From positions 766,719 to 830,718 of the forward strand of contig OZ244717.1 of assembly GCA_965218975.1 (NCBI GenBank): a DNA stretch of 64,000 nucleotides. The letters are read 5' to 3'. Positions 1,588-25,791 of the stretch are shown here, in pieces. The position numbers and the translations under genes were made by a program. Under the pieces are notes generated by a model. The model saw only the letters and a program-made list of their open reading frames with translations. It was not told the origin of the DNA and ran no database searches. Each line of letters begins with the position of its first letter. Positions within the stretch are counted from its first letter, which is position 1. This DNA comes from Candidatus Oxydemutatoraceae bacterium. Lineage in GTDB: Bacteria > Pseudomonadota > Gammaproteobacteria > Poriferisulfidales > Oxydemutatoraceae.

Positions 1588-2335
1588 TAGCGATAAAGGA
1601 AGCAGCTTAGTTTCTCACCTCACCGAACTGCGCGGCCGTTTACTCAAAGCCGCCGCCGCGGTGGGCGTTATTTTTTTGATTTTATTCCCGTTCGCGAATG
1701 ACCTGTATCAGTATTTGTCGGTACCGCTTCTGCGTTATTTGCCTGAGGGTGTTTCAATGATCGCCATTGAAGTCGCCTCACCTTTTTTAGTGCCGTTTAA
1801 GCTTGCACTGCTGTTGTCGTTTTTTCTGACGATGCCGTATTTGCTGTATCAGGTATGGGCCTTTGTCGCGCCGGGCTTATATCGCAACGAACGAAGAATT
1901 GCTTTACCGTTGATTGTCTCAAGCACGATATTGTTTTATCTTGGTATCGCATTTGCTTACTTTATCGTGTTTCCTCTGATGTTCGGTTTTTTTACCGCCG
2001 TCGCGCCGGTCGGAGTGACAGTGATGACGGATATCGCACACTATCTGAGCTTTGTATTCAAGATATTCATCGCCTTTGGTATCGCTTTTGAAGTACCGGT
2101 AGCAACCGTGTTATTGGTCAAGGTCGGAACGATGACTTCCGGCAAACTTGCCGCGAAACGTCCGTACGTAATCATCGGAGCGTTTGTCGTCGGCATGATT
2201 TTAACGCCGCCGGACGTGCTTTCTCAGGTATTACTGGCGATACCGATTTGGATATTATTTGAACTAGGGCTATTATTCACTCGCTGGTTACCAGCAGCAC
2301 AAGATACTACAGATACACGAAATAGCACGACATGA
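1559..2335 (+). CDS. tatC: Twin-arginine translocase subunit TatC
   Basis: 258 aa polytopic protein ([15 protein letters not shown] ... six TM segments). Its stop overlaps a gpmI-type ATG as ATGA. Confidence 0.9.
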
Positions 2336-3620
2336 CAGCAATGGATCGACTGCCTGGGCAACGTACAGTGCTGGTGATTTTAGATGGTTTTGGGGTGAGT
2401 CCAAGCAAGTCCAATTCGGAGCGTTTGTCGTCGGCATGATTTTAACGCCGCCGGACGTGCTTTCTCAGGTATTACTGGCGATACCGATTTGGATATTATT
2501 TGAACTAGGGCTATTATTCACTCGCTGGTTACCAGCAGCACAAGATACTACAGATACACGAAATAGCACGACATGACAGCAATGGATCGACTGCCTGGGC
2601 AACGTACAGTGCTGGTGATTTTAGATGGTTTTGGGGTGAGTCCAAGCAAGTCCAATTCGGAGCGTTTGTCGTCGGCATGATTTTAACGCCGCCGGACGTG
2701 CTTTCTCAGGTATTACTGGCGATACCGATTTGGATATTATTTGAACTAGGGCTATTATTCACTCGCTGGTTACCAGCAGCACAAGATACTACAGATACAC
2801 GAAATAGCACGACATGACAGCAATGGATCGACTGCCTGGGCAACGTACAGTGCTGGTGATTTTAGATGGTTTTGGGGTGAGTCCAAGCAAGTCCAATTCG
2901 GAGCGTTTGTCGTCGGCATGATTTTAACGCCGCCGGACGTGCTTTCTCAGGTATTACTGGCGATACCGATTTGGATATTATTTGAACTAGGGCTATTATT
3001 CACTCGCTGGTTACCAGCAGCACAAGATACTACAGATACACGAAATAGCACGACATGACAGCAATGGATCGACTGCCTGGGCAACGTACAGTGCTGGTGA
3101 TTTTAGATGGTTTTGGGGTGAGTCCAAGCAAGTCCAATTCGGAGCGTTTGTCGTCGGCATGATTTTAACGCCGCCGGACGTGCTTTCTCAGGTATTACTG
3201 GCGATACCGATTTGGATATTATTTGAACTAGGGCTATTATTCACTCGCTGGTTACCAGCAGCACAAGATACTACAGATACACGAAATAGCACGACATGAC
3301 AGCAATGGATCGACTGCCTGGGCAACGTACAGTGCTGGTGATTTTAGATGGTTTTGGGGTGAGTCCAAGCAAGTCCAATTCGGAGCGTTTGTCGTCGGCA
3401 TGATTTTAACGCCGCCGGACGTGCTTTCTCAGGTATTACTGGCGATACCGATTTGGATATTATTTGAACTAGGGCTATTATTCACTCGCTGGTTACCAGC
3501 AGCACAAGATACTACAGATACACGAAATAGCACGACATGACAGCAATGGATCGACTGCCTGGGCAACGTACAGTGCTGGTGATTTTAGATGGTTTTGGGG
3601 TGAGTCCAAGCAAGTCCAAT
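2175..3620 (+). repeat. Six identical head-to-tail copies of a 241-bp unit (tatC 3' end plus gpmI 5' start)
   Basis: Copies start at 2175, 2416, 2657, 2898, 3139 and 3380. I saw no mismatch by eye. Junction reads ...gtccaat|tcggagcg... Confidence 0.95.
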
Positions 3621-5081
3621 AATGCGGTTTATCTTGCCGATACGCCGCGGCTGGATGATTTGTTTGCCCGTTATCCGCACACATTGCTCGAAGCATCGGG
3701 GCCGGCAGTGGGATTGCCGGTCGGGCAAATCGGCAACTCCGAAGTCGGACACATCGCGATGGGGTGCGGTTGTACCATTGAACAAGATATCGTACGGATT
3801 AATGCTGCGATTGAAGACGGCTCTTTTTTTGAGAATCCTTCATTGGTTTTTGCGATGAAAAAAATTGCCAAGGGCAATCGGCGTATGCAGCTGATTGGGT
3901 TAGTGTCGGACGGCGGTGTTCATTCGCATATCGCACATTTGAAAGCGCTGATTAAATTATGCAAGCAACATCGGGTGCGGCCGTTTTTGCATATGATTAC
4001 CGACGGACGCGATACCGCGCCGCGATATGCGCAAGAGTTTATCAGTGAAGTGGAGCCATTGCTTAAATCTGCGGGCGGTGCGATTATAACTATTATGGGG
4101 CGCTATTATGCAATGGATCGCGATCAACGTTGGGAGCGAACCGAACAAGCGTGGCGAGCGATTATATGCGCCGCGGGCGAGAAATTTATTTCTGCGATGC
4201 AGGCAGTGCATGCCGCATACGCTTCGGGTATCGGAGATGAATTTATTCGTCCCGCAGTGTTGTCGGGCGCGCAACCGCTGACTCAAAATGATCCGTTTAT
4301 CTTGTTCAATTTCAGAAACGACCGACCACGACAGTTGATGTATGCGTTGACAATGCCCGAGTTTGACAATTTTGACCGCGGCGATGCGCCTTTGGTTGAT
4401 GTGACGACTATGACCGAAGTTGATAAGAAGCTGCCGAGTTTGATTGCGTTTGCGCCGATTCGCCCGAAAACTACTTTAAGCGGCGTGATCAGCGAGGCAG
4501 GATATAAGCAATTTCATTGCGCAGAAACGGAAAAATACCCGCATGTAACTTTTTATTTCAACGGCGGTGTGGAGAGTCCGCTCGCCGGTGAAGACAGAAC
4601 CTTGATTCCGTCGCCGAAAGTTTCAACATACGATTTGCAACCACAGATGAGTGCGGCGGAGGTTACTGCGGCGGTGATGCAAGCGATGCGTAACCCCGAG
4701 TATGCGTTTATTGTCGTCAATTTTGCCAATACCGATATGGTCGGACATACCGCTCTTGCGGAGCCGCTGATTCAAGCGGTCAAAACGGTGGATTTTCACA
4801 CCGGGCAGATTGTCGATGTGGCATTTGAGCACGACTGGGCGGTTTTGATTACTGCCGATCATGGGAATTGCGATGAGATGCTGGATCCGCAGACGCAACA
4901 ACCCAATACGCAGCATACATTAAATCCGGTGCCCTGTTTAATTGTCAGTGCGCACAATTGTCAATTGGCGAGCGGATGCAGCATCAGCAGCATCGCGCCG
5001 ACGGTACTTGATTTGATGGGGCTTGAAATTCCTCGCGAAATGGAAGCGCCGTCGGTGATTGTGCGCAGTAGTGACGGTTGA
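3537..5081 (+). CDS. gpmI: 2,3-bisphosphoglycerate-independent phosphoglycerate mutase
   Basis: 514 aa with [15 protein letters not shown] and ADHGN motifs of iPGM. Confidence 0.92.
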
Positions 5082-5834: not shown

Positions 5835-5855
5835 CTATGTGTTCTAACAAGAGCG

Positions 5856-5921
5856 GTCGACACCATCACATCAACCGGAAAACTGATGTTCCATGTCTTC
5901 GGAGCTCTGGCAACTGAAAGC
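5856..5921 (+). pseudogene. Serine recombinase (resolvase/invertase) fragment
   Basis: VDTITSTGKLMFHVFGALATES resembles the conserved (L)DT.T..GKLMF.V.GA(L)AEFER block. No remainder of the gene is present. Confidence 0.4.
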
Positions 5922-5981
5922 TCCGACACAAAAAAACCGCCTTCGGATGGCTTTTTGTGTTCCATTTGGTGGAGAGTGAAG

Positions 5982-6199
5982 TTAATGATGCAGTGCGAGC
6001 ACGCCGGTATAGACGCCTACGACGCCTGCGATCGTCACGATTGCACCGATAAGGATACCGACGACCCACTGAGTCGTACTGATTTTTGCTGGGCAATTTC
6101 GATCTTCAGCTCATGTAGTCCCTTTTCGAGCTCATACTGTCCTTTTTCAAGATTCAGCAATCGCCGGTCAACGTCTTCAAGCGTTATTTCCATATCCAT
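5982..6199 (-). pseudogene. Small coiled-coil protein with C-terminal TM helix, frameshifted (paralog of 15411-15632 and 17572-17802)
   Basis: M(D)MEITLEDVDRRLLNLEKGQYELEKGLHELKIEIAQQK continues as STTQWVVGILIGAIVTIAGVVGVYTGVLALHH only after a 1-nt shift in the A5 run near 6085. The span is 218 nt, which is not divisible by 3. Confidence 0.45.
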
Positions 6200-6457
6200 T
6201 CTTTTTGATTATTCCCGCATGGAAACTCACCCTGCGGGTTAAACAAATTGAGTCGCCGACCATATAAAACTAGTCATGAGAACTCATACCGCAACGCTTA
6301 TTATCATTGCATTGAATGATGACCCGAACCGTCCGGTTTGTCAAGTTTATGTACGATGCCACCTTAAATGGGATTTTTGAAGGGCTTCGGGGGGAAGCGT
6401 TCGGCAGTAACATTCGGATCGGTGCTTTCTGTCCGTTGCCGGCATGAGGACGGTGCA

Positions 6458-7961
6458 GGGTGAGACGCGCCGCTGAAAACCGATTGGGTTTCAGCGGCGA
6501 ACGACTCGACAAGGACGTCAGGGCTGGCGCTCATTGACAGAACCAAGTCTCGTCATGGGTGAGACGCGCCCGGAAAACCAATTGGTTTTCAGCGGTGAAC
6601 GACCCGACAAGGATGTCGGGGCTGGGGCTTGTTGACAGAACCCAGTCGCGTCATGGGTGAGACGCGCCCGGAAAACCAATTGGTTTTCAGCGGTGAACGA
6701 CCCGACAAGGATGTCGGGGCTGGGGCTTGTTGACAGAACCCAGTCGCGTCATGGGTGAGACGTGCCCGGAAAACCGATCGGTTTTCAGCGGCGAACGACC
6801 CGACAAGGATGTCGGGGCTGGGGCTTGTTGACAGAACCCAGTCGCGTCATGGGTGAGACGCGCCCGGAAAACCAATTGGTTTTCAGCGGCGAACGACCCG
6901 ACAAGGATGTCGGGGCTGGGGCTTGTTGACAGAACCCAGTCGCGTCATGGATGACAGGCACTTTGCCGACAATCCGGCACAATTCGCCAGCAAACACAAA
7001 ATGGTTTCATCAGCTCAAAGATTTTACTGCTGCCGAGATTCGGATAAGCTTGGCGCAGGGTGGGACGCGCCCGGAAAACCGATCGGTTTTCAGCGGCGAA
7101 CGACCCGACATGGATGTCGGGGCTGGCGTTCATTGACAGAACCAAGTCTCGTCATGGGTGAGACGCGCCCGGAAAACCAATTGGTTTTCAGCGGCGAACG
7201 ACCCGACAAGGATGTCGGGGCTGGGGCTTGTTGACAGAACCCAGTCGCGTCATGGATGACAGGCACTTTGCCGACAATCCGGCACAATTCGCCAGCAAAC
7301 ACAAAATGGTTTCATCAGCTCAAAGATTTTACTGCTGCCGAGATTCGGATAAGCTTGGCGCAGAGTGAGACGCGCCCGGAAAACCGACTGGTTTTCAGCG
7401 GCGAACGACTCGACAAGGACGCCGGGGCTGGGGCTTGTTGACAGAACCCAGTCGCGTCATGGGTGAGACGCGCCCGGAAAACCAATTGGTTTTCAGCGGC
7501 GAACGACCCGACAAGGATGTCGAGGCTGGGGCTTGTTGACAGAACCCAGTCGCGTCATGGATGACAGGCACTTTGCCGACAATCCGGCACAATTCGCCAG
7601 CAAACACAAAATGGTTTCATCAGCTCAAAGATTTTACTGCTGCCGAGATTCGGATAAGCTTGGCGCAGAGTGAGACGCGCCCGGAAAACCGACTGGTTTT
7701 CAGCGGCGAACGACTCGACAAGGATGTCGGGGCTGGCGTTCATTGACAGAACCAAGTCTCGTCATGGGTGAGACGCGCCTGGAAAACCGATCGGTTTTCA
7801 GCGGCGAACGACCCGACAAGGATGTCGAGGCTGGGGCTTGTTGACAGAACCCAGTCGCGTCATGGGTGAGACGCGCCCGGAAAACCAATTGGTTTTCAGC
7901 AGTGAACGACCCGACAAGGATGTCGGGGCTGGAGCTTGTTGACAGAACCTAGTCGCGTCAT
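6458..7961 (-). repeat. Array of 12 x 98-nt structured units (A) interleaved with 3 x 109-nt B modules
   Basis: Unit starts are 6458, 6557, 6655, 6753, 6851, [B 6949-7057], 7058, 7156, [B 7254-7362], 7363, 7461, [B 7559-7667], 7668, 7766 and 7864. The period is 98 (99 once). Confidence 0.9.
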
Positions 7962-8230
7962 GGATGACAGGCACTTTGCCGACAATCCGGCACAATCCGC
8001 CGACAACACGGCAACAAGCGCAAAACGGTTTCACACTGAATCGGTTGCGGCCAGATCCGCTGGCGCCTCTTACGCGGCGCTTTGCCGCGATCATGTAAGG
8101 CGCTGAGGCCAGTGCGGCGATAACGCCGACGCCAGCGGTACAAAGTACTGCGACCGATCTTGAATGCGTTCGGGAGTTACAACCCTCCCAAAATGAGGGC
8201 ATCATATTTTTGTTGAGCCGTTGTGTTCAT
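7958..8230 (-). pseudogene. Transposase N-terminal HTH remnant (rve/IS481-like) with in-frame TAA
   Basis: MNTTAQQKYDALILGGL*LPNAFKIGRSTLYRWRRRYRRTGLSALHDRGKAPRKRRQRIWPQPIQCETVLRLL, after which the frame runs into repeat sequence. No catalytic domain follows. Confidence 0.6.
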
Positions 8231-8496
8231 AATGGCCTCTATTTTTGAAGCAAAATTGGCTCATATAGAAACCTTTGATGCGGTGGCCGATGTGCTGATA
8301 TTGCATATCGGTTACCTTTTTGAGTCGTGCCGTAAATCCCACATGTATCTGGCACTGTACACCTCCTTATGCCAAGAAATATGTACAGTGCCGATATGCG
8401 CCGGACTTTTGCAGTTTGTCCGGGGGCAGTATCCGGAATAGAGGCTGTTTTGCCGGCCGCTTGCGTGCAATGGACGGTAGGAGGATAGCCGTATCA

Positions 8497-8874
8497 TCAT
8501 AAATAATGCTTGCGGTGGTGCGAGCGTGTTCCGGATCGTTGCACGATCACGCCGCGAATGACCTCTAAGCTTTTTATTGCAATGGATGGATACTCTCGGT
8601 TAACCGGTGTCAGGAAATAATTACCGTCATGGGAGCTCAGCCGGCGAAAAATGAATCCTTCGTCTTCCAGTTCGGCAACCACGTAGTTGCCGATTTCCGC
8701 GGTGGTTGCCGGCTCTATAATAATGACACATCCGTCGGGAAATTCCGGTTCCATGCTGTCGCCGAGAGCACGCAAGGCATACGGTTCTTTCGACGCGCAG
8801 CTCGCCTCATCTTCAGTTAGCCTAAGTTGCGAAGATGGCGTTTTCAACTCATCGCTCATGCGAAAACCACCCAA
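8497..8874 (-). CDS. S24 (LexA/UmuD-like) peptidase domain protein without DNA-binding domain
   Basis: 125 aa. GDSMEP carries the Ser nucleophile. VVAELEDEGFIFRRL aligns to LexA VVARIDDEVTVKRL. Confidence 0.75.
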   Translation of the reverse strand: MGGFRMSDELKTPSSQLRLTEDEASCASKEPYALRALGDSMEPEFPDGCVIIIEPATTAEIGNYVVAELEDEGFIFRRLSSHDGNYFLTPVNREYPSIAIKSLEVIRGVIVQRSGTRSHHRKHYL

Positions 8875-14338: not shown

Positions 14339-14475
14339 GCGGATGCTTCTTGATATATTGTTGTTTTATACGGGCATGACAGGAAAATTCATACGATTTC
14401 TTGCTAAAAGTTCCTAAGCATCTATCCGTTTGCTTCAAAGCGGAAGCAGGTAATGAGCGACATCCTTCAAGGCAT

Positions 14476-15230
14476 TGTACGTGTCCGGATACATACTGGA
14501 TTCTTGGACGTCAATAAAAAGGTGACCGACATGCAATACCAGCACATTGGCCACCGCATCAAAGGTTTCTATATGAGCCAATTTTGCTTCAAAAATAGAG
14601 GCTATATAGAGGCTATTATGAACACAACGGCTCAACAGAAATATGATGCCCTATTATTTTTGGAGGGTTGTAACTCCCGAACGCATTCAAGATCGGTCGC
14701 AGTACTTTGTACCGCTGGCGTCGGCGTTATCGCCGCACTGGCCTCAGCACCTTACATGATCGCGGTAAAGCGCCGCGTAAGAGGCGCCAGCGGATTGTCA
14801 GTAAAGTGCTTGTCGTCCATGACGAGACTTGGTTCTGTCAATGAGCGCCAGCCCTGACGTCCTTGTCGAGTCGTTCGCCGCTGAAAACCGGTCGGTTTTC
14901 CGGGCGCGTCTCACCCTGCGCCAGGCTTATCCGAATCTCGGCAGCAGTAAAATCTTTGAGCTGATGAAACCGTTTTGTGTTTGTTGGCGGATTGTGCCGG
15001 ATTGTCGGCAAAGTGCCTGTCATCCATGACGCGACTTGGTTCTGTCAACAAGCCCCAGCCCCGACATCCTTGTCGGGTCGTTCGCCGCTGAAAACCGGTC
15101 GGTTTTCCGGGCGCGTCTCACCCTGCACCGTCCTCATGCCGGCAACGGACAGAAAGCACCGATCCGAATGTTACTGCCGAACGCTTCCCCCGAAGCCCTT
15201 CAAAAATCCCATTTAGAGTGGCATCGTACA
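14476..15230 (+). mobile_element. IS-derived head-array-tail repeat cassette, copy 2 (H - A' - B - A - T)
   Basis: The left end is tgtacgtgtccggatacat. Modules: A' 14819-14916, B 14917-15025, A 15026-15123, tail 15124-15230 ending ggcatcgtaca. Confidence 0.7.
14618..14818 (+). pseudogene. Transposase N-terminal HTH remnant (2-nt indel plus stop relative to copies 1 and 3)
   Basis: Same sequence as 24314-24586 and 7958-8230. The HTH (FKIGRSTLYRWRRRYRRTGLSTLHDRGKAPRKRRQR) is out of frame with the ATG. Confidence 0.55.
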
Positions 15231-15410
15231 TCGGTTTGACAAATCGCCGGAACGACGTTATTCTCGTTTACAATAACGTTATGAGCCTTGAGGTAACTAA
15301 TGCTCATAACCGGCGATGTTGTCGGCGCCTCAAAACCGATACTTGTCCATGATGCGGGACGAACATCCCGTGCGGGCGTTTCTCCATGCGGGCGTAGCCC
15401 TCAACTTAAA

Positions 15411-15632
15411 ATGGAGACGATTATAGAAATTACTGCTGAGAAATTTGAACAGGAAATTCGAAAGCTTGAGCAGGGACAAAAGGACCTTGAGCAGGGACAA
15501 AAGAACCTTGAGCAAAAGCTGTCCGACTCTCATCGTGAATTTATTATCTGGGTGGTCGGTTTGTTCATCGGCACCGGGGTGCTGATGACCGCCTTGGGCA
15601 GCCTGTATATCAACATTCTGCTTGTGAATTAG
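15411..15632 (+). CDS. Small coiled-coil protein with C-terminal TM helix
   Basis: METIIEITAEKFEQEIRKLEQGQKDLEQGQKNLEQKL ... IIWVVGLFIGTGVLMTALGSLYINILLV. A terminator follows. Confidence 0.5.
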   Translation: METIIEITAEKFEQEIRKLEQGQKDLEQGQKNLEQKLSDSHREFIIWVVGLFIGTGVLMTALGSLYINILLVN

Positions 15633-15688
15633 GTTTCAGTTGCTAGGTCTTTGGTTATACTGACGAAGCTTTGCCGAGCGCAACACGG

Positions 15689-15714
15689 AAAGCCGCCTTC
15701 GAGCGGCTTTTTCG
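15689..15714 (+). terminator. Rho-independent terminator
   Basis: aagccgc-cttcga-gcggctt followed by tttcg. Confidence 0.6.
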
Positions 15715-15877
15715 TGTCAGGACTTTAAGTTGCCTGCCTGCCCCGCGGCGTTTTCGTCCGTTTCGGCGTCTCCGGCGAAAAATCGACAGCGAAACTCGCC
15801 CGTAGCGCGACGATTCGGAAGGTAAAAAGTATCCCGCGCGATACCCCCTAATTCGGCGCTTCGGTTTTCGGTCGAGA

Positions 15878-16093
15878 GTGCCAAATGTTATGGGCCTATA
15901 CAGTGAGTTTCAAGGACAGTTTGCCCGGCTCATCCGGGAATCACCCGCGATTGAGCAGTGGCTAACCTATCCCAAGTGTCCAAAAATGAACGCGCACATC
16001 GAGCGCTTCAACCGCACCGTCCAAGAAGATTGTATCGATCATGCGGAAGACCTGCTATTTACCGATACGGAAGCATTCAATGACCGGTTATGA
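15878..16093 (+). pseudogene. DDE (rve-type) transposase C-terminal fragment
   Basis: ...SEFQGQFARLIRESPAIEQWLTYPKCPKMNAHIERFNRTVQED... is the conserved P..P..N..(I/V)ERFNRT block. The fragment is cut after FNDRL by repeat sequence. Confidence 0.65.
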
Positions 16094-16249
16094 AACCGTT
16101 TTGTGTTTGTTGGCGGATTGTGCCGGATTGTCGGCAAAGTGCCTGTCATCCATGACGCGACTTGGTTCTGTCAACAAGCTCCAGCCCCGACATCCTTGTC
16201 GGGTAGTTCGCCGCTGAAAACCGGTCGGTTTTCCGGGCGCGTCTCACCC
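16094..16249 (+). repeat. Partial cassette: linker X (gaaaccgttttg...gtcatcc) plus one 98-nt A unit (16152-16249)
   Basis: Near-identical to the X and A modules of the full cassettes. Confidence 0.85.
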
Positions 16250-16294
16250 TGCTCGTCCATGCCGAGACTTGGCGCTGCCGAACGCATCCTCGTA

Positions 16295-16543
16295 ATGGCA
16301 GAGCAGGACGTTCAACATATGCGCAATTTTGAGAACAAGGCTTTAGACGCCGCCCGTTACCAACAACTCACGGGACAGGTCTGCGGTTTTATCATCGGCA
16401 TCATCGCATTATTCGCAGCGGTCGCCGCTTTATTCCTTGGCCATGAAGTTGTCGCTGCGATTATCGGCGCTACAACGGTAGCTAGCCTCGGTGCTGTTTT
16501 TGTAACAGGAAGGATCGCCAAGCCAAAAGGCAGAGGCATATAA
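16295..16543 (+). CDS. DUF2335-like membrane protein, N-terminally truncated (ORF formally opens inside the repeat at 16103)
   Basis: (G)AAERILVMAEQDVQHMRNFENKALDAARYQQLTGQ followed by 2 TM helices. The DUF2335 assignment is from memory of the PGAAERIL.MAE motif. Confidence 0.5.
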   Translation: MAEQDVQHMRNFENKALDAARYQQLTGQVCGFIIGIIALFAAVAALFLGHEVVAAIIGATTVASLGAVFVTGRIAKPKGRGI

Positions 16544-16923
16544 CGCTTTGGAGAATGTATACACCGCCGGTTGAAGTGTGCCCCGCTTTCTCATTAATAA
16601 CCTACGTGAATTAGCGGCAACCGAGATGAGGGGCACGAAACCGCTTCAAAGTTTTGTTTTAATTAAATTGCGGAGATTTAGCACATCCAAGTCAAGCGTC
16701 TAAGTCTGCCGGAATGATAGAATACAAACCGACATAAATCCGAACCGCGATAAAGTGAACAGCGCAATGTTTCAAGTTCACTTCAAAAAGCATAGATTCA
16801 AGGGGATACGAGATAGACTCAAAAGAGTTGAGTGCCTTCTCTCGCCGCGGTGAATAATCTGTTTGAGGCAGCGGACACCGTCTTAAACGAAGGACGTTTA
16901 ATCTTGCTTTAACTGCCACTTAA

Positions 16924-17337
16924 TTAGCGAATACGCCAGGGTTTCAAAAACTGGGATAAAAGAAAAGAAACACCTAGTAACCCTAACCCGCCCGCGGCCC
17001 ATCCATGGCCGCTTATTGCCAAATAAGTACCAAGAAAAAGTCCTAACACCGCTAAGAAAAAAGCCATATATTGACCACGCTTTACATGCCCATTTGCCTG
17101 AGCTAACCCATGGCTTTTCATATCAATGATATGCTTTTGCCTGTCCTCCGCCATGCAAATAATGCGGTCAGCCGCCCCTTTAATCACATCCTCGTACTTT
17201 TGCAATTCCGACGAGCGTGGTAGAGGGCCCTTATGCTGCTCCATCTGCACCACACGACGGAGGTCCTTGCTTTGATCAGGGACGTTGCGCGGCTTGCTTT
17301 TCTGTAACGGCTGCTTTGTACTCTTCCGTTTGCTCAT
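16924..17337 (-). CDS. DUF2335-like membrane protein (full length)
   Basis: 137 aa: LPRSSELQKYEDVIKGAADRIICMAEDRQKH ... RGQYMAFFLAVLGLFLGTYLAISGHGWAAGGLGLLGVSFLL. Confidence 0.6.
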   Translation of the reverse strand: MSKRKSTKQPLQKSKPRNVPDQSKDLRRVVQMEQHKGPLPRSSELQKYEDVIKGAADRIICMAEDRQKHIIDMKSHGLAQANGHVKRGQYMAFFLAVLGLFLGTYLAISGHGWAAGGLGLLGVSFLLSQFLKPWRIR

Positions 17338-17571
17338 AATCGTTCAGAGCATCACGCAAGCAGCTGCCGACACCGGTCCAAACTAATTCCTCTATTTCTT
17401 CCTCGCTCTTGCGCGATGGGATGTTCATAGGAGAAATCAGCGATAGAGCCCCCCGCAAAAGATTTTTCGCAATTATGCTTTCCATGATTCTCATCCTAAT
17501 ACTATATTCAAAAAACGATTCAAGTGTACGATGCTGTATAGGCCCATAACATTCGGCACTCCAGGTGGTGA

Positions 17572-17802
17572 TTACCAGATCAGAGTCAGGACGCCGATGA
17601 CGGCGAACAGCGTCGTGAACGCGAGCGTCACGAACCACGTCTTCACCGAGTCGACTTTGCTTTCCAGTTTCTCAAAGCGGCGATCGAGCGCTTGATCGCG
17701 TTTGTCGAGTTCTTCTTTGAATTTGACCTTCAGCTCTTGTTGCTGTTGACAGATCGTCTCTAAAGTAATTTCCATCATCGTCTTCATTATAGGTTGATTC
17801 AC
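17572..17802 (-). CDS. Small coiled-coil protein with C-terminal TM helix
   Basis: (M)MEITLETICQQQQELKVKFKEELDKRDQALDRRFEKLESKVDSVKTWFVTLAFTTLFAVIGVLTLIW. Same architecture as 15411-15632. Confidence 0.5.
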   Translation of the reverse strand: MNQPIMKTMMEITLETICQQQQELKVKFKEELDKRDQALDRRFEKLESKVDSVKTWFVTLAFTTLFAVIGVLTLIW

Positions 17803-17957
17803 AAGAAAATGCCCTAATGGATTCGGCCCCTTACAGGAGCGCCATCCCGTCGGGGCAAGTATCGGTTTCGAGGCGCTGGCCGGGTCGTGAGCAGTTAATG
17901 CCTCCGAAGCTCATAATATTGTGCTTAAGAATACGCCGTTCCGGTGGTCCGTCAAAT

Positions 17958-18566
17958 TTAATGAAAGCGCCGAAATTTTGGAGGTTTTTTCAACCGTGAT
18001 AATTCGGTTTTTAACTCATCTATCTTTGCTTCGAGCCTGGCTACGTCGGTCTTGGTTGCGGATTCATTCGTATGTGCGAATGTTGGCGGAAAGTTTAGAT
18101 AGTCTGCTGTGTGGCATCTGGAAATTTTAGCATCGCGATCATGCGGAGCAAATTTACTCAGTAACGAAGCTATGGTATCAAACGGAGTAAAATCCGGAGT
18201 AAAATCACATAGCTGCTGAATTGACTTTTGAAGCCGGCGCCGAGGAGCATCTATTTGGGCAAGACGTTGCACTGATTCCTGCATCTGCTGTAACGGCTGA
18301 TAGAAGTTCTGCTTTGCGATGGTTGCCAAAGCTCTCTGTAGAGACTTTGCTGAGAACTTATTTTGTTCATCTAAAAACCTTTGTCTGTTCATAAAATTTT
18401 CCTGAAGCTGGCGCTGAGTAGCAACTATTTGGTCAGGACGTTGCACTAATTCCTGCATCTGCTGTAACGGCGGATAGAAGTTCTGCTTTGCGATGGTTGC
18501 CAAAGCTCTCTGTAGAGACTTTGCTGAGAACTTATTTTGTTCATCTAAAAACCTTTGTCTGTTCAT
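17958..18566 (-). CDS. Hypothetical Q-rich coiled-coil protein with internal 58-aa tandem duplication
   Basis: 202-aa ORF. Residues 1-58 and 59-116 are near-identical (MNRQRFLDEQNKFSAKSLQRALATIAKQNFY...). Confidence 0.45.
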   Translation of the reverse strand: MNRQRFLDEQNKFSAKSLQRALATIAKQNFYPPLQQMQELVQRPDQIVATQRQLQENFMNRQRFLDEQNKFSAKSLQRALATIAKQNFYQPLQQMQESVQRLAQIDAPRRRLQKSIQQLCDFTPDFTPFDTIASLLSKFAPHDRDAKISRCHTADYLNFPPTFAHTNESATKTDVARLEAKIDELKTELSRLKKPPKFRRFH

Positions 18567-18657
18567 AAAATTTTCCTGAAGAATATTCTAATAAATAATA
18601 ATCAAAAGTTAATAGAAGCCCGGATGAAAAAAGCCGCCCGAAGGCGGCTACAATCAA

Positions 18658-18939
18658 GTGGTTCCCGGCGCTGCCGAACGCATCCTCGTAATGGCAGAGC
18701 AGGACGCTCAACATGTGCGCAATTTTGAGAACAAGGCTTTAGACGCCGCCCGTTACCAACAACTCACGGGACAGGTCTGCGGTTTTATCATCGGCATCAT
18801 CGCATTATCCGCAACGATCGCCGCTTTATTCCTTGGCCATGAAGTTGTCGCTGCGATTATCGGCGCTACAACGGTAGCTAGCCTCGGCGCCGTCTTTGTA
18901 ACAGGAAGAATCGCCAAGCCGAAAGGCAGAGGCACATAA
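18658..18939 (+). CDS. DUF2335-like membrane protein, N-terminally truncated (duplicate of 16295-16543)
   Basis: VVPGAAERILVMAEQDAQHVRNFENKALDAARYQQLTGQ plus 2 TM helices. I estimate about 95% nt identity to the 16.3-kb copy. Confidence 0.5.
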   Translation: MVPGAAERILVMAEQDAQHVRNFENKALDAARYQQLTGQVCGFIIGIIALSATIAALFLGHEVVAAIIGATTVASLGAVFVTGRIAKPKGRGT

Positions 18940-19029
18940 CGCTTTGGGAAATGTATACACCGCCGGTTGAAGTGCGACCCGCTTCCTCATTAATAACCTA
19001 CGCGCATTAGCGGCAACCGAAATGAAGGG

Positions 19030-19341
19030 TGTACGATGCCACCCTAAATGGGATTTTTGCAGCGCTTCTCTGTCTGCATACTCACAGGCAGGCACGCACA
19101 AGCAGGGTCTCGTCATGGGTGAGACGCGCCCGGAAAACCGATCGGTTTTCAGCGGCGAACGACCCGACAAGGATGTCGGGGCTGGGGCTTGTTGACAGAA
19201 CCCAGTCGCGTCATGGATGACAGGCACTTTGCCGACAATCAGGCACTTTGCCGACAATCAGGCACTTTGCCGACAATCCGGCACTTTGCCGACAATCAGG
19301 CACAATCCGCCGAACATCCGCCAACAAACACAAAACGGTTC
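19030..19341 (-). repeat. Partial cassette: tail end fragment, one A unit (19117-19214), and linker X with the 19-nt iteron expanded to 4 copies
   Basis: Starts with tgtacgatgccaccctaaatggg... The iteron ggcactttgccgacaatc(a/c) occurs at 19223, 19242, 19261 and 19280. Confidence 0.8.
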
Positions 19342-19620
19342 AGCCGATTGTTGAACGCTGTACGTGTCCGGTATTCCGGACATAGTAGGAAAGTTGCCGA
19401 GCAATGACTTGATAACGAAGTCATATCGTTTAGTTCTCGGTGGAGGGCGCTCGACGTCGTAACGTTGTAGGTCATTAATCATCCGCTGGTAAAACTCACC
19501 GATGTCTTCAAGTAATTATTCTCTTTGGTAGTCGATAAATTCTTCTTAGACAATACGGCCGAAGCGCTCATTTCAGCATTCATCTTCGGACATTCCGGAC
19601 CGGGTAACTTACTATCTCAA

Positions 19621-20277
19621 TCAATCCTTATCCCGGGTGTCAATCTCATATTCCACCGCCATGACTGCCGCTTCGACTCGTGAATGCACTCCGAGCTTGC
19701 GTAAAATCGCTTTCACATGCAATTTCACTGTTCCTTCCGAAATACCTAATTGATTAGCGATAGATTTATTGCTTTGTCCTTCGGCAAGCAAATTCAATGC
19801 CTCGCGTTCGCGCGGCGTTAACGTTTTAATCGGATGATCCTGGCGCATACGGCGACGATAGAGGGCACGCGAATATGATTGTCGCATCGCCGGCGAAAAC
19901 ACAATTTCACCGACAACCGCTTTACGCAATGCAACCACCAAGTTATCCGGGTCAATATCTTTAAGCAAATAACCCTGTGCTCCGGCCTGCATGGTCCGGA
20001 CAACATCTTCCTCATTTCTGCTGGTCGTAAGCACCACAATCGCCTGCTTCATTTTCTTCGCAATCAACTGCTTCAACACTGCCAAACCATTCATATCGGG
20101 CATACGCAAATCAAGTAAAACAACATCGGGAGCGGTCCGCTTCACCTGTTCAATCCCTTCCTGTCCGCTGCCGACCGATGCGACCACTTCGATATTGCGG
20201 CTAACAAGCAAACGTTCCAATCCTTCGCGAAACAGGGTGTGATCGTCAATCACTACGACACGCAATTTATTCGCCAT
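19621..20277 (-). CDS. Two-component response regulator, NarL/FixJ (LuxR-type HTH) family
   Basis: 218 aa with a receiver domain (VVIDDH ... DLRMPDMNG) and a C-terminal LTPREREALNLLAEGQSNKSIANQLGISEGTVKLHV. Confidence 0.9.
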   Translation of the reverse strand: MANKLRVVVIDDHTLFREGLERLLVSRNIEVVASVGSGQEGIEQVKRTAPDVVLLDLRMPDMNGLAVLKQLIAKKMKQAIVVLTTSRNEEDVVRTMQAGAQGYLLKDIDPDNLVVALRKAVVGEIVFSPAMRQSYSRALYRRRMRQDHPIKTLTPREREALNLLAEGQSNKSIANQLGISEGTVKLHVKAILRKLGVHSRVEAAVMAVEYEIDTRDKD

Positions 20278-20282
20278 AATGT

Positions 20283-21866
20283 CTAGGCTGTTTTAACAGC
20301 CGTCGGATAACGAAACCGCAATTTAACCCGCGTCCCCTCACCGGGTTCGGTATCGATAACCAATTCGCCTTTGATGCGAGCGGCACATTCGCGCATCATA
20401 GTCAAACCAAAATGCCCTTCTTTCACAGTCGTTAACGCGACGTTTTCCATACCGCAGCCGTTATCTTCGATCATGACGAAATAATTGTGATCTTTATCAT
20501 CGCGTAACAATAATCGGACAAAATCAGCCCCGCTGTGTTTATACACATTGGCAAGCGCTTCTTGAATGACCCGTAAAATTTCATTTTCGTATTCCACCGG
20601 CAAATCTTGCACTGCCCACTCTTTTTGCACAAACACTTTTATCTTCGGATGATTCCGACGAAACCGCCGCACAAATTCATCAATCGAACGAAAGCTCTTC
20701 TTATGCAACGAAGCGGGGGACGTATCTCGGAAATGAACAATTAAATTGCGTACCTCGCGGTTTGCCGACTCAATATCATTCTCAAGTTTTTCCAGCTCCC
20801 GCCAAGCGGTTTCCTCGTCATTCTCATGCATTGCTTGATCCAACACACGTGCCTGAAATCGCAAGCTGCTGATTGTTTGCGCCAATGAGTCGTGCAGTTC
20901 GTGCGCAATCCGAGTACGCTCCTTCATAATGGACAAACGCTTGGTTTCCTCATCCAAGCGCGACTTCACCACTACCATTCCAAGGTGATAACCGACACTG
21001 GCAAATAATTCATCCAACACGGAGCGGCGAGAAAAAGTTTCCTGATCAAGGTACAAACAACATATTCCGAGCACATCGCCATAATGCTTCAGCGGAATCA
21101 CTAATCGGCGATACTTCGGCGAATCTTTTAAAAACGGATTGTCTTCCGCCATAAACCGAATGTCCTCGATTGCAGGAACCGTACCGGTTTGCGCGACTCG
21201 CCACATTCCGCCGTTTTCCAAGCGTAGGCGAATCATCGCGCCGTCCAAATTGAAGATGTCTTCCAATGTTTTGAGCACATTGTTGAACACCTCATCCATA
21301 CTCTGCAATGTATTGATGCTGGTTGCAATCCGATACAACGCGGCAAGCGAGCGTGTTTTTTGCGTGATGTGCTCAGTGTGTTCGCGCAATTGTCTCTCGG
21401 CATAACGCGATTGCGTTTCAAGCATCGTCGCCAATGTGTTCAAATCGGCGTTAATACAGGCGAAATTGGCCGCAACCGATTCGGGCAAACGCGCGGACAA
21501 ATTGCCCGCATGTATTGACAACAACCATTGCTTTAATTGTGCCATCGGTTTCAGAAAGTCCGACCACAACCAATACAACGCACCGAACAAAACCGCTAAC
21601 GCGGCGGATAATCCGTACATCCACCATATCGGCAATGCATCCGATAAAGAAATAGCGGCGGAGGTATTCATCCGGCTACTAACCGCGGCAATCGCCAGCA
21701 CCACCGTCATCAGCGCGAAAAAAACCAACGCGATAATACTGCGTTGCGCGAACGGCTTATTTAAAAAATCGGAACGTTGTTGCGCTAAGCGTTGCGACGT
21801 TAAATCCGCCGGTGCGGACTCCGCCAAAGACGATTCACGATTCAATTTGAAAGTTTTGAATAGCAT
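20283..21866 (-). CDS. Sensor histidine kinase (2 TM - HAMP - GAF - HisKA_3 - HATPase)
   Basis: 527 aa with H-box RIAHELHDSLAQ and N/G boxes (EALANVYKH ... DNGCG ... GLTMM). Confidence 0.88.
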   Translation of the reverse strand: MLFKTFKLNRESSLAESAPADLTSQRLAQQRSDFLNKPFAQRSIIALVFFALMTVVLAIAAVSSRMNTSAAISLSDALPIWWMYGLSAALAVLFGALYWLWSDFLKPMAQLKQWLLSIHAGNLSARLPESVAANFACINADLNTLATMLETQSRYAERQLREHTEHITQKTRSLAALYRIATSINTLQSMDEVFNNVLKTLEDIFNLDGAMIRLRLENGGMWRVAQTGTVPAIEDIRFMAEDNPFLKDSPKYRRLVIPLKHYGDVLGICCLYLDQETFSRRSVLDELFASVGYHLGMVVVKSRLDEETKRLSIMKERTRIAHELHDSLAQTISSLRFQARVLDQAMHENDEETAWRELEKLENDIESANREVRNLIVHFRDTSPASLHKKSFRSIDEFVRRFRRNHPKIKVFVQKEWAVQDLPVEYENEILRVIQEALANVYKHSGADFVRLLLRDDKDHNYFVMIEDNGCGMENVALTTVKEGHFGLTMMRECAARIKGELVIDTEPGEGTRVKLRFRYPTAVKTA

Positions 21867-21896
21867 GCCGACTAATGCATTACGGCTTTCGGCACA

Positions 21897-22232
21897 TTAC
21901 ACCGGGGGCGATTCCTGTTCGGGCGGAACATAAGCGGGATCATTCGGATTTAAGAAAATAAAGTTAAACTCGCCTTTCTCCATCTCCACAAAGTCTATCG
22001 CCATATCCTTTACCAACATTAAAGCCTCGCCCGAGACGACAATATTGATTCCTGCGCTTTTGCAAGTCAAATCATCCTGATAACTCGCATCGTCGAACCC
22101 CATCGCATAATGGAAACTATCATCCGGTTTGCGCACCACCGCAATCCGCAGAGACAAACCTTCCATATTCCCGTCTTTTGCGGATTGTTTAATACGCGCC
22201 GCCGCCGCCTCTGTCACTGTAATCATGCGCAT
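21897..22232 (-). CDS. HesB/IscA-fold protein lacking the canonical Cys ligands
   Basis: 111 aa. ITVTEAAAARIKQ ... LRIAVV ... GFDD resembles A-type carriers, but there is no GCSG and no C-terminal CGCG. Confidence 0.6.
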   Translation of the reverse strand: MRMITVTEAAAARIKQSAKDGNMEGLSLRIAVVRKPDDSFHYAMGFDDASYQDDLTCKSAGINIVVSGEALMLVKDMAIDFVEMEKGEFNFIFLNPNDPAYVPPEQESPPV

Positions 22233-22278
22233 AGTTTAACCGAACTCGTCGGCTTTCTCCGTAACGCGATCGCAGTAC

Positions 22279-22309
22279 AAAAAAAGGGGCGTCCCGGCAG
22301 GACGCCCCT
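22279..22309 (-). terminator. Rho-independent terminator downstream of the porin gene
   Basis: The minus strand reads aggggcgtcc-tgcc-gggacgcccct followed by ttttttt. Confidence 0.75.
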
Positions 22310-22362
22310 TAAAAGCTGCCATTGATCAGCGCAATGCAACGATGAACGTTTGCAAACGCCGA

Positions 22363-23754
22363 TTAGTCAAACCAATGAATGATACCAAAGGAGACTGCGT
22401 CAATGTCTCCACCTTTAACGGGATTCCCAGTGTTAATACCAAAATCATATTGCGAATTAGCCTCGTTGTCCACTTCCGAATACGTCAGACGCAATTCGGT
22501 GCCGGCCGGCATCGTGTAGAACAAACCAAGGTTATAAGCTTTGGCGTCGGTGTCTTTCTCTTGCGCGCTGGTGCAAGCAGAATCGGAACCGCACTCCCAT
22601 TCATCGCCATCCATGTACGAGAAGCGAAAATCAAAACCGTTGCCGAAGGAGTGCTTGCCCGAGATCATCCAAGCCTCGCGCTCGACATCCGTCCATACCG
22701 CTTGAACTTCGCCCGTTGCGTCATTGCCATAGCCAGGGGTAGCACCCTCATTAAGTTCAATACACCCGTCAGCATCGTAATCGAGTTCTTCCCACATTGC
22801 GGCAAGCCAGGTTTTCATACCGTTGCCCCAGTCGTGAACATAACGACCGGCGATTCTAATGCCTTCGTCATTCGAATCAGTACAGGAGTTTGCAATTTTT
22901 TGTGTTTGATCATTAGCAAAACTGTTATTGAGATCCGTGATACTGAGGTCATCGTGCTCTTGATAGGCTGCCGCAATCCAGAATTGATCGCCGTTCGCCA
23001 GATTATGCTGATAAGACACACCCGTCGATATGATGCGCGGATCAACAGTGACTCCACTGGGGTGAGATTGGTCGTCTGTCGCACTGCCTTCGGTGACCGC
23101 GAAACGGAACTGAAAACCGTCGCGCGCCTGCGAAGCCATCGCGCTGGTGTTCGGCCAAACATACATGACCACACCTTCCTGACGACGGTTGAACGCGAGC
23201 GCTCCATAAGCTTCACCGAAATCATCGTCGAAGCTGCCATTATAGTAGAGATATGAAAAATCTCCGCCACCGGAAGCACCTGCTTCTGGCTGTGTAGCAC
23301 TTTGCCCGAGATTACCCATAATGCTGGTATGCGAATTGGTGTCGGCATCGTAGAATGGGTCTATCCACCCCGCAACGATTTCGTTATACGGCAACAGCCA
23401 CTGAGCGAACATGATCTCACCCATCATCTCGTGACGCAAGCTGATCTTGGAATTACGATTGCACCAGTCGGTGTATTTGTTGTTCCTGCCCCAGTAGGTA
23501 AACTGCTCGCAACGCAGACCGACTTGCAAACCGGCAATGCCCGTATCCATGTGCGACATGAAACCGATGTTACCGGCATCGTTGCTCAGGCGATCTACTT
23601 CCTTGCCTCCATCAGCATCAACAAATTCATACGACCAGTTTTGCCAACTGTAAAGGTTGATGTTTTCTTCAGCGCCCATACCGGCCATGCCGCTCAGCGG
23701 AATGACCGCCAGCGCAATGCCGAGTACTGAAGAAAGCAAAAGTTTTCTAACCAT
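22363..23754 (-). CDS. Putative outer-membrane beta-barrel porin
   Basis: 463 aa with a signal peptide (LLLSSVLGIALAVIPLSGMAG), alternating aromatic/Gly-rich strands and a C-terminal ...SFGIIHWFD. Confidence 0.6.
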   Translation of the reverse strand: MVRKLLLSSVLGIALAVIPLSGMAGMGAEENINLYSWQNWSYEFVDADGGKEVDRLSNDAGNIGFMSHMDTGIAGLQVGLRCEQFTYWGRNNKYTDWCNRNSKISLRHEMMGEIMFAQWLLPYNEIVAGWIDPFYDADTNSHTSIMGNLGQSATQPEAGASGGGDFSYLYYNGSFDDDFGEAYGALAFNRRQEGVVMYVWPNTSAMASQARDGFQFRFAVTEGSATDDQSHPSGVTVDPRIISTGVSYQHNLANGDQFWIAAAYQEHDDLSITDLNNSFANDQTQKIANSCTDSNDEGIRIAGRYVHDWGNGMKTWLAAMWEELDYDADGCIELNEGATPGYGNDATGEVQAVWTDVEREAWMISGKHSFGNGFDFRFSYMDGDEWECGSDSACTSAQEKDTDAKAYNLGLFYTMPAGTELRLTYSEVDNEANSQYDFGINTGNPVKGGDIDAVSFGIIHWFD

Positions 23755-24313
23755 TATTTTTCTCCCTTTGAATTATTCAAAAGCCCCTGATTCTTTTTAA
23801 TTAAGAATGCCGGGTATTGTTGTTATTGTGCACAATCCTGTGCTCAACATACAACGGCGCTGTTAAGAAATACCATATAGCACTCTTCACAAAGGCCGCC
23901 GCGGAAATCTCACACGGTGTTTTTGCAACATTCAAACCGACACCGGAACCCAATGGGTTCACGTAATCGCCTCAAACGGGGAGTAAGGATAAACCAACCG
24001 TTTCAAAAAAGCAACAATAAAATGTATATCGCATTCAAACAACACCGAAAGTCTCGACGGATGAAGTTTGCCCTTAACGCAAGCCTTAGAAAGTTGTCCG
24101 GATATTGCCATTCGATGGTAAAACTTTAATTGTCTCTAATTGTCTCTTTTTCACAACAAAGTAATTATTTACTATCCGCAAGTACATAAAGCTCAGAAAC
24201 CTTTGATGCGGTGACCGATGTGGATGCGGTGACCGATGTGCTGATATTGCATATCGGTCACCGCGTCAAAGGTTTCTATATGAGTCAATTTTGCTTCAAA
24301 AATAGAGGTTATT

Positions 24314-24586
24314 ATGAACACAACGGCTCAACAGAAATATGATGCCCTCATTTTGGGAGGGTTGTAACTCCCGAACGCATTCAAGATCGGTCGCAGTACT
24401 TTGTACCGCTGGCGCCGACGTTATCGCCGCACTGGCCTCAGCGCCTTACATGATCGCGGCAAAGCGCCGCGCAAGAGGTGGCGGCGAGTCTGGCCACAAC
24501 CGATTCAGCACGAAACCGTTTTGCGCTTGTTGCCGGATTGTCGACGGATTGTGCCGGATTATCAGCACAGTGCTTGTCGTCCATGA
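24314..24586 (+). pseudogene. Transposase N-terminal HTH remnant with in-frame TAA (24365-24367)
   Basis: MNTTAQQKYDALILGGL*LPNAFKIGRSTLYRWRRRYRRTGLSALHDRGKAPRKRWRRVWPQPIQHETVLRLL... Confidence 0.6.
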
Positions 24587-25608
24587 CGCGACTGGGTTCT
24601 GTCAACAAGCCCCAGCCCCGACGTCCTTGTCGGGTCGTTCACCGCTGAAAACCAATTGGTTTTCCGGGCGCGTCTCACCCATGACGAGACTTGGTTCTGT
24701 TAATGAGCGCCAGCCCTGACGTCCTTGTCGGGTCGTTCGCCGCTGAAAACCGATCGGTTTTCCGGGCGCGTCTCACCCTGCGCCTGGCAGAATTTCGGCA
24801 GCAGTAAAGTCTTTGAGCTGATGAAATCATTTTGTGTTTGTTGGCGGATTGTCGGCGGATTGTGCCGGATTGTCGGCAAAGTGCCTGTCATCCATGACGC
24901 GACTGGGTTCTGTCAACAAGCCCCAGCCCCGACATCCTTGTCGGGTCGTTCACCGCTGAAAACCGATCGGTTTTCAGCGGCGCGTCTCACCCATGACGAG
25001 ACTTGGTTCTGTCAATGAGCGCCAGCCCTGACGTCCTTGTCGGGTCGTTCACCGCTGAAAACCGATCGGTTTTCCGGGCGCGTCTCACCCTGCGCCTGGC
25101 AGAATTTCGGCAGCAGTAAAGTCTTTGAGCTGATGAAACCATTTTGTGTTTGTTGCCGTGTTGTCGGCGGATTGTGCCGGATTATCAGCACAGTGCTTGT
25201 CGTCCATGACGCGACTGGGTTCTGTCAACAAGCCCCAGCCCCGACGTCCTTGTCGGGTCGTTCACCGCTGAAAACCAATTGGTTTTCCGGGCGCGTCTCA
25301 CCCATGACGCGACTGGGTTCTGTCAACAAGCCCCAGCCCCGACATCCTTGTCGGGTCGTTCACCGCTGAAAACCAATTGGTTTTCCGGGCGCGTCTCACC
25401 CTGCGCCAGGCTTATCCGAATCTCGGTAGCAGTAAAATCTTTGAGCTGATGAAACCGTTTTGTGTTTGTTGGCGAATTGTGCCGGATTGTCGGCAAAGTG
25501 CCTGTCATCCATGACGCGACTTGGTGCTGTCAATGAACCCCAGCCCCGACGTCCTTGTCGGGTCGTTCGCCGCTGAAAACCGATCGGTTTTCCGAGCGCG
25601 TCTCACCC
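24583..25608 (+). repeat. Array: A, A', B, A, A', B, A, A, B, A'
   Basis: A units start at 24583, 24681, 24894, 24993, 25206, 25304 and 25511. B modules are 24779-24893, 25091-25205 and 25402-25510. Confidence 0.9.
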
Positions 25609-25791
25609 TGCACCGCCCTCATGCCGGCAACGGACAGAAAGCACCGACCCGAATGTTACTGCCGAACGCTTCCTCCGAAGCCCTTCAAAAATCCCATCTA
25701 GGGTGGCATCGTACAAATTCTTGCGTAAAACGCTTGGTTATTATAAAATAGACCTTATTTAATAATTGAGCGAATTGAGCGAGGGTTTTTT

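Follow-up and report, generated by a model that had tools for sequence, protein, structure and literature searches.

Head-array-tail cassettes that probably derive from an IS481-family insertion sequence

Three head-array-tail cassettes and two related fragments lie in a 64,000-nucleotide stretch of gammaproteobacterial DNA (the whole stretch that was analysed, hereafter the window). We find that these cassettes originate from an insertion sequence (IS) of the IS481 family. It is probable, in our assessment, that they are dead, non-autonomous derivatives of a single such IS, in which an insert in the transposase linker gave rise to the array, the catalytic core was deleted, and the resulting form was dispersed and then expanded or contracted locally.

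Modules, copies and terminal repeats

The initial annotation described a family of modular elements, each composed of a head (H), modules termed X, A and B, and a tail (T). BLASTN comparison of these five modules with the window recovered the claimed layout, and all checkable counts proved exact: three copies, of 2012 bp (copy 1), 755 bp (copy 2) and about 1520 bp (copy 3), plus fragments at 16092–16247 and 19030–19345. Independently, TRF reports the 98-nt period of the A unit, higher-order periods of 305 and 312 nt, and repeats of 11 and 19 nt within X. The 18-bp palindrome of the A unit, GAAAACCNNNNGGTTTTC, occurs 23 times versus 0.02 expected by chance. Two of the module definitions need amendment. 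The A unit is 98 nt long, as described, but comes in two subtypes (A1 and A2) rather than one; and X can be called a linker only in its iteron part, since its 5′ start (GAAACCRTTTTG, encoding KPFC) is transposase coding sequence.

Copy 1 (6350–8361, minus strand) has 12 A units and three B modules, arranged H, X′, three A, B, X, two A, B, X, two A, B, X, five A, T. Its left inverted repeat (TGTACAGTGCCAGATACATGTGGGATTT...) spans 8330–8361, and an inverted 11-nt duplicate of the tip of this repeat lies at 8382–8392. The head (8036–8329) comprises a predicted hairpin that covers the RBS and start codon (8282–8316) and a pseudogenised transposase N-terminus (MQYQHIGH..., with the HTH ...GRSTLYRWRRRY...RKRRQRIWPQPIQ), which contains an in-frame TAA at 8177–8179. 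In the first X (X′, 7962–8035), the ETVLRL coding start is fused to the iteron part of X. Next come A units 1–3 (A1, A1, A2; 7670–7963), B module 1 (7619–7669; LRQAYPNLGSSKIFELM, corresponding to transposase residues of about 78–94) and X 1 (7559–7618), which consists of the KPFC codons and GGATTGT iterons. The BLASTN matches then place A units 4–5 at 7365–7560, B module 2 at 7314–7364, X 2 at 7254–7313, A units 6–7 at 7060–7255, B module 3 at 7009–7059 and X 3 at 6949–7008. These are followed by A units 8–12 (6460–6950), four near-identical A1 and then an A2, and by the tail (6350–6459), in which the transposase C-terminus (LHRPHAGNGQKAPIRMLL...) runs into a right inverted repeat ending in GGCATCGTACA.

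Copy 2 (plus strand) is the simplest, with two A units and one B module in the order H, partial X, A, B, X, A, T. Its left inverted repeat and head occupy 14476–14790 (TAA at 14671–14673), and its tail, with the right inverted repeat, 15122–15230. The body between them (14791–15121) consists of the partial X (14791–14818), an A2 (14817–14914), B (14915–14965), X (14966–15025) and an A1 (15024–15121). Copy 3 (plus strand) has seven A units and three B modules. Its head (24195–24511; TAA at 24365–24367) is truncated, the left inverted repeat being lost and an inverted duplication of head positions 46–95 standing in its place (24195–24262). The body (24512–25606) reads X A A B′ X A A B′ X A A B X A, where B′ is a variant of B that is 5 nt shorter and is found, twice, in this copy only. 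The tail and its right inverted repeat lie at 25607–25715, with iscR 76 nt downstream.

Both fragments are composites. The one on the plus strand (16092–16272) is made up of X, an A1 and an A2 of which 16 nt at the start remain, and it is fused to a DUF2335 gene that is itself truncated. The one on the minus strand (19030–19360) contains AFNNRL codons, an X with 4.4 copies of the 19-nt iteron, an A1 and a variant tail, along with the right inverted repeat; beside it, on the plus strand, lies a solo tip of the left repeat (19359–19373).

The outer ends of the cassettes, as had been claimed, are imperfect inverted repeats. Left ends read TGTACGTGTCC or TGTACAGTGCC...TGGATTC or GGGATTT, and the right end reads TGTACGATGCC...GGGATTT. 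Both begin with TGTAC, and hence with the TGT of IS481-type terminal repeats, and both share a GGATT block some 20 nt inward. No target-site duplication of 3–10 nt is present in the flanks of copies 1 and 2, and copy 3 has no left end. That the defective form transposed is thus suggested only by how it is dispersed and by the lesions that the copies share.

IS481 descent and the place of the array in the gene

That the elements are IS-derived is borne out by both ends. H and B match the NCBIfam model for IS481 transposases (NF033577) over positions 22–90 (E = 4.7e-12), and T encodes a transposase C-terminus: its translation, ...LHRPHAGNGQKAP..., aligns to the conserved C-terminal RPH...P motif of transposases and is followed by the right inverted repeat. 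Pfam matches in the transposase remnants are to HTH_32, HTH_28 and rve_3. When concatenated, the remnants score 74 bits against NF033577 (E = 1.3e-20), and loss of the catalytic core keeps them below the curated cut-off of 224 bits. To judge from these matches, the IS481 descent of the remnants appears clear, yet the copies are not intact members of the family. The absence of a transposase catalytic domain holds for all three copies, but not for the window, which contains a C-terminal remnant of this domain (...NAHIERFNRTVQEDCIDH...AFNDRL, model positions 199–258) at 15878–16093 on the plus strand, adjoining the fragment that begins at 16092.

The same in-frame TAA interrupts the HTH region of all three heads, and there are frameshifts as well. 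This shared stop codon implies that the copies descend from an ancestor that was already defective. In a collection of 5.8 billion proteins, the closest full-length transposases are 54% (P0003) and 44% (P0007) identical, and every closer hit is a short ORF on one 2.08-Mb contig, which evidently belongs to the source genome. Protein searches yielded no intact transposase ORF on that contig, where no matching protein exceeds 157 aa; for this reason the transposase family looks extinct there.

It had been suggested that the array replaces the body of the transposase. Loss of the core is real, but replacement is too simple a description: the array lies inside a gene that had a catalytic domain, and the core appears to have been deleted afterwards. 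The relevant evidence comes from searching 1.84 billion representative proteins exhaustively with HMMER: the A-encoded part of the query is covered by only five small ORFs of 120–151 aa (P0030, P0027, P0031, P0024 and P0021). For four of these, all but P0031, the contig was looked up and is the 2.08-Mb one. P0030 is open in a single frame through ...A/LRQAYPNLGSSKIFELMKPFCVCCRIVGKVPVIYDATGFC...GRVSP/CLSVRTIARLIADAPDKMRCIPQRLNAKG (slashes mark joints), in full ...A/LRQAYPNLGSSKIFELMKPFCVCCRIVGKVPVIYDATGFCQQAPAPTSLSGRSPLKTNWFSGRVSP/CLSVRTIARLIADAPDKMRCIPQRLNAKG. P0024 and P0027 read ...GRVSP/CPSVRTIARLIADAPDKMR...KPKHFKAQYPGHCIALDTIV, and GRVSP/CPSVRTIARLIADAP runs on into the catalytic domain. 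In relatives from the same search (P0032, P0034, P0040 and P0043), and in P0007, KP[WF]C is followed by 6–7 residues and then by CPS[VA][RS]TIGR, with no insert. Together, the ORF fragments of the contig and the uninterrupted relatives indicate that the 3′ part of X plus A constitutes an insert, specific to this lineage, in the poorly conserved linker that separates the HTH (...KPFC) from the CPSVRTIARLIADAP/DDE core. The insert is absent from all relatives in the protein libraries searched.

A single unit adds about 43 codons, in frame and without stops. A unit of 98 nt is not a whole number of codons, so that gaining a second one disrupts the reading frame. It is improbable, in our view, that the 98-nt unit serves the transposase gene as a translated in-frame insert whose copy number acts as a switch, open with one unit and closed by tandem gain. 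If this were true, the IS would have a built-in and possibly reversible means of self-inactivation, based on a hairpin-prone coding insert, and the arrays would represent the birth of a minisatellite from transposase coding sequence in a bacterium.

A second X-A block is found further downstream in the gene, between AFNDRLW and LHRPH, in P0005, P0023 and the window fragments at 16092 and 19340; in P0001, this second site is uninterrupted (C-terminus AFNDRLWGYVAWYNLHRPH). The KPFC codons of the first site are present in the second-site block too (NRFVFVG...), which shows that this block was derived from the first site through recombination and did not arise by fresh insertion.

As to the source of the A sequence itself, its derivation as a copy of the native linker was considered and rejected as unsupported: a profile of 15 full-length relatives fails to align to X-A, and A, when aligned with frameshifts allowed to the native linker peptide (CPSV...PGHC), scores no better than shuffled sequence. 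X-A does score 37–44 against P0007, versus 25.5 ± 4.2 for shuffles, a match carried mainly by KPFC and IHDA. A local duplication followed by divergence is hinted at by the 3′ part of X (RIVGKVPVIHDAT), which is similar to native RTIARLIADAP.

Joints, proposed history and competing readings

The 3′ junctions of the array all fall at the same edge, ...GCGTCTCACC (...CTCACC/CTGC...), after which CTG follows. The joint is CTGCCCG where native CPSV continues, CTGCGCC at the start of B, CTGCACC at the start of T and CTGCTCG at 16248; CTGACC... is deduced for LTDGG in P0005. Native codons at these joints are back-inferred from protein fragments of other loci. The array-to-tail joint also recurs elsewhere with different flanks (P0035 and P0038). 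This recurrence, together with the shared TAA, speaks for dispersal of the defective form after it had arisen.

These joints suggest the following order of events. The linker between the HTH region (...ELMKPFC) and CPSVRTIARLIADAP would first have gained the 3′ part of X and one 98-nt A unit. This segment, which is rich in hairpins and palindromes and has short iterons at its borders, may then have been multiplied by replication slippage or unequal recombination, destroying the reading frame. Later events would have reused the array edge ...GCGTCTCACC beside CTG(C) microhomology. Joining of this edge to the start of B (CTGCGCC) would have created the B-X-A-A higher-order repeat, and joining to the last ~35 codons (CTGCACC) would have removed the whole catalytic core, generating the head-array-tail form. 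The first X could have come to lie directly behind the head when the ETVLRL codons (GAAACCGTTTTGCGCTTG) recombined with the KPFC codons (GAAACCATTTTGTGTTTG). The defective form, with both of its terminal inverted repeats, would have been copied to several loci, presumably by transposase supplied in trans, and each copy would then have gained or lost its own 11-, 19-, 98- and ~305-nt repeats. Within this scheme, the IS481 origin, the place of the array in the gene, the lack of the insert in relatives, the lesions common to the copies and the local homogenisation are seen directly, and we infer the slippage mechanism, the mobilisation in trans and the lack of a present-day function. Slippage or unequal exchange fits the presence in the same elements of tandem repeats at four scales (TRF periods of 11, 19, 98 and 305/312 nt) beside strong hairpins. 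The recurrent use of one exact edge could instead point to a site-specific process rather than to random slippage.

The final step, local change, is directly visible. The 23 A units are 86–100% alike, with the A2 subtype mostly occupying the last position before a B module or the tail. Within copy 1, X 1 to X 3 are identical, as are B modules 1 and 2. Identical A units likewise occur within a copy: the first and fifth of copy 3, and the tenth and eleventh of copy 1. Such within-copy homogenisation means that repeat content has changed locally since dispersal. The claim that repeat content varies between copies therefore stands, and comparison of the units indicates that the differences are of local origin.

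An alternative is that A, with part of X, is an independent palindromic mobile element of MITE- or REP-like kind, which invaded the transposase gene twice and also inserted next to itself, the IS being merely its carrier. The unit has inverted termini (GACGCG...CGCGTC), three internal hairpins and a fold z-score near −4; it is absent from the transposase of every relative, and it occupies two positions in the gene, the linker and the site between AFNDRLW and LHRPH. A possible 4-nt duplication (TGCC) around the linker insertion, deduced from protein fragments only, would also be in keeping with this reading. Nevertheless, A is always preceded by X at its 5′ side in the window and always has the sense orientation of the transposase, and the KPFC codons carried to the second site speak for recombination over insertion of A alone. 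Moreover, exact degenerate patterns for the A unit have no occurrence in species-representative genomes (185,579 species), patterns for the A unit and tail have none in JGI metagenomes or IMG/VR (two patterns each), and BLASTN of the whole of copy 2 finds no match in plasmid or phage collections. We thus regard an independent A element as unlikely. A protein search with the translated A array also returned zero candidates; as the database holds the known A-containing ORFs, this result reflects a word-index limit and not absence.

It is also quite unlikely, in our estimation, that the arrays are functional and kept by selection, whether as tandem structured RNAs or as protein-binding arrays of palindromes and iterons (transposase decoys or promoter-proximal regulatory modules). 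A1 does fold far better than its shuffles (z = −3.9 and −4.3). But A1 folds equally well on both strands with RNA or DNA parameters (z = −3.5 to −4.3), which is the signature of a DNA palindrome, and A2 folds poorly (z = −1.7), with pairs broken in helices 1 and 2. One change that would favour selection on pairing is seen at the centre of the 18-bp palindrome, where CAATTG is replaced by CGATCG (11 G-C, five A-T). This is the only one of 32 pairs to be changed on both sides, a count reached by 487 of 500 shuffles, and covariation in the A fold was accordingly rejected. Rfam 15 gives no hit at gathering score anywhere in the window and no family match to copy 1 up to E = 10, the hits within 6200–8500 being chance-level miRNA-like hairpins (E > 0.9). 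Because there is no Rfam match, the two strands fold equally and A2 breaks two helices, a functional RNA from the arrays is unlikely.

Protein binding has its own points in favour. The X iterons (CGGATTGT) resemble the GGATT motifs of both terminal repeats, and it is a possibility, predicted from this resemblance, that they act as internal decoys for transposase. In copies 1 and 2 the tail stops 5 nt short of a promoter-like site (TTGACA with 17-nt spacing) that heads paralogous small genes; a third paralog (17572–17960) has no element, and the placement before these genes may reflect target preference or chance. Against any selected function, the composition of the arrays varies freely among copies, and conservation outside the source genome is absent. 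Separately, we dropped the proposal of a −35 hexamer adjoining copy 3 ahead of iscR, as TTGCGT matches at three of six positions and the promoter scan did not report the hexamer. Comparison of empty sites by way of IscR loci gave no useful synteny, the best relative of IscR, from a Cocleimonas MAG, being 61% identical; the genome collection has no close relatives of the host, a gammaproteobacterium.

Finally, it is highly improbable that assembly errors created the arrays or set their lengths, although the unit counts given here are those of the assembly. The window does contain six tandem copies (6.0 by TRF) of a 241-bp unit that are 100% identical, as an assembler error or a very recent amplification would produce, but the A units differ in a patterned way, with two subtypes and a higher-order arrangement, and the same joints recur, both at three window loci and in ORFs from elsewhere on the contig. 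The sequence TGTACGTTGCC in this 241-bp repeat was also considered as an IS end and rejected; it lies within the first codons of a phosphoglycerate mutase gene and matches by chance.

Relation to known elements and repeats

If these cassettes are indeed dead derivatives of one IS481-family IS, they offer a stepwise case of IS decay into a MITE-like element with a minisatellite, in which the preserved joints order the events: linker insert, tandem gain, core deletion at microhomology, dispersal and local expansion. Little is known of how BOX, BrickBuilt and other modular repeats of bacteria arose, so that a traceable IS parent makes for a useful reference case. On the practical side, such arrays mislead gene callers, with many spurious small ORFs here, as well as assemblers. 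Understanding of IS481 elements is otherwise unchanged.

The architecture was initially held to be unlike that of any described IS, MITE or repeat family. This is true of the unit, which is found in no public collection searched, but the head-array-tail plan has bacterial precedents in BrickBuilt and BOX. The cassettes resemble the IS481 family (NF033577) in their model match, in inverted repeats that start with TGT, in a single transposase gene that fills the element and in a hairpin over the start codon. They differ in having no catalytic core, in the arrayed, lineage-specific insert of ~43 codons between HTH and DDE, and in that no target-site duplications are seen.

As in MITEs, there is no transposase (all three heads contain stops or frameshifts), terminal inverted repeats are present, and copies are dispersed, three in full within the window and array-to-tail joints at at least two other loci (P0035 and P0038). 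MITEs are usually smaller than ~0.5 kb; the present copies, at 755, about 1520 and 2012 bp and with no target-site duplications, depart from them in this respect. Pneumococcal BOX elements, boxA-(boxB)n-boxC, and enterobacterial BIMEs also consist of a head, an internal module of variable number and a tail, and can form stable secondary structures. This modular plan is shared by the cassettes, whereas the modules of BOX and BIMEs are of 35–60 nt, are not transposase-derived and have no IS-type terminal repeats.

The closest architectural parallel is the BrickBuilt MITE of Porphyromonas gingivalis, which has a leader, a tandem minisatellite, a tail and small inverted-repeat ends; its copies are numerous in a genome, vary in repeat number, lie in intergenic regions and are limited in host range (PMC4596501). 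Set beside that description, the likeness is one of architecture only: the leader-array-tail plan, inverted-repeat ends and variable repeat number (PMC4596501). BrickBuilt repeats are 23 nt long and have no spacers, and the abstract names no parent IS or transposase remnant (PMC4596501); here, in contrast, a 98-nt unit is nested in a higher-order repeat of ~305 nt, between recognisable pieces of a transposase gene. A more distant parallel is provided by satellite-like arrays in eukaryotic non-autonomous transposons, for example the Helentron-borne satDNA of an oyster (PMC7492417). There too, tandem repeats arise inside a non-autonomous element and are dispersed along with it (PMC7492417), although the transposon class and domain of life are different and the arrays here are short, at 2–12 units. 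The present elements are thus IS481-family by descent and MITE-like by behaviour, while being larger than typical MITEs. New in them are a traceable IS parent, a repeat that originated inside the transposase reading frame and a nested repeat hierarchy.

Inverted duplications and iterons of the defective IS481-derived element

Inverted self-duplication recurs beside the left end of the element, the head-side end carrying the left inverted repeat, and is seen at 8351-8392, 19359-19385 and 24195-24262. In copy 1 of the element (6350-8361, minus strand), the 11-nt tip of the left end is duplicated in inverted orientation 20 nt upstream; at 19359-19385, a TGTCCGG/CCGGACA inverted pair marks the left-end tip; and in copy 3 (24195-25715, plus strand), a 68-nt inverted duplication stands in place of the left end. 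The recurrence of these duplications suggests snap-back rearrangements at the left end of the element.

The ~60-nt X modules of the array vary in iteron number and contain iterons of two types, one of 11 nt (GGATTGTCGGC-like) and one of 19 nt (CAGGCACTTTGCCGACAAT), the latter repeated 4.4 times in the fragment at 19221-19303. GGATT forms the core of the X iterons and is also present in both terminal inverted repeats.

Small-gene cassettes and DUF2335 genes

Of three paralogous small cassettes in the window, the one at 5850-6349 (minus strand) immediately follows the tail of copy 1 and the one at 15231-15730 (plus strand) that of copy 2. The third (17572-17960, minus strand) adjoins no element. 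In all three, a TTGACA-17-nt promoter-like site is accompanied by a conserved leader rich in hairpins (...CCATGCGGG) and by a short ORF encoding a coiled coil. One copy is frameshifted (6035-6199), and each of the two intact ORFs encodes a membrane segment at its C-terminus. The cassettes at 5850-6349 and 15231-15730 show a terminator hairpin.

A membrane-protein gene of the DUF2335 type has its 3′ part duplicated (16271-16633 and 18667-19029; 94.5% identity), each copy truncated or abutted by an element fragment, and a third DUF2335-like ORF (16924-17337, minus strand) occupies part of the interval between the two. For the element right end at 19030, the empty-site counterpart is the paralogous site at 16620-16636.

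Tandem duplications

The array at 2175-3620 comprises 6.0 copies of a 241-bp unit with 100% identity. The unit starts within a tatC-like ORF, of which it includes the last ~53 codons, crosses the intergenic space and extends ~28 codons into the phosphoglycerate mutase gene (3537-5081). The array reflects either an assembly artefact or an amplification that took place very recently. Elsewhere, a 202-aa ORF (17958-18566, minus strand) contains a 174-bp tandem duplication (95% identity), and a 21-nt repeat occurs 2.4 times within a small ORF (15465-15514). Tandem duplications seem to be generally frequent in this genome.

The trmJ-iscR interval

Between trmJ and iscR (14339-25791) lie copies 2 and 3 of the element, small-gene cassettes, the DUF2335 genes, a LuxR-type response regulator gene (19621-20277) with an adjacent 527-aa ORF, and a porin gene (22363-23754). 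These insertions total ~11 kb; in E. coli, the trmJ-iscR interval is short.
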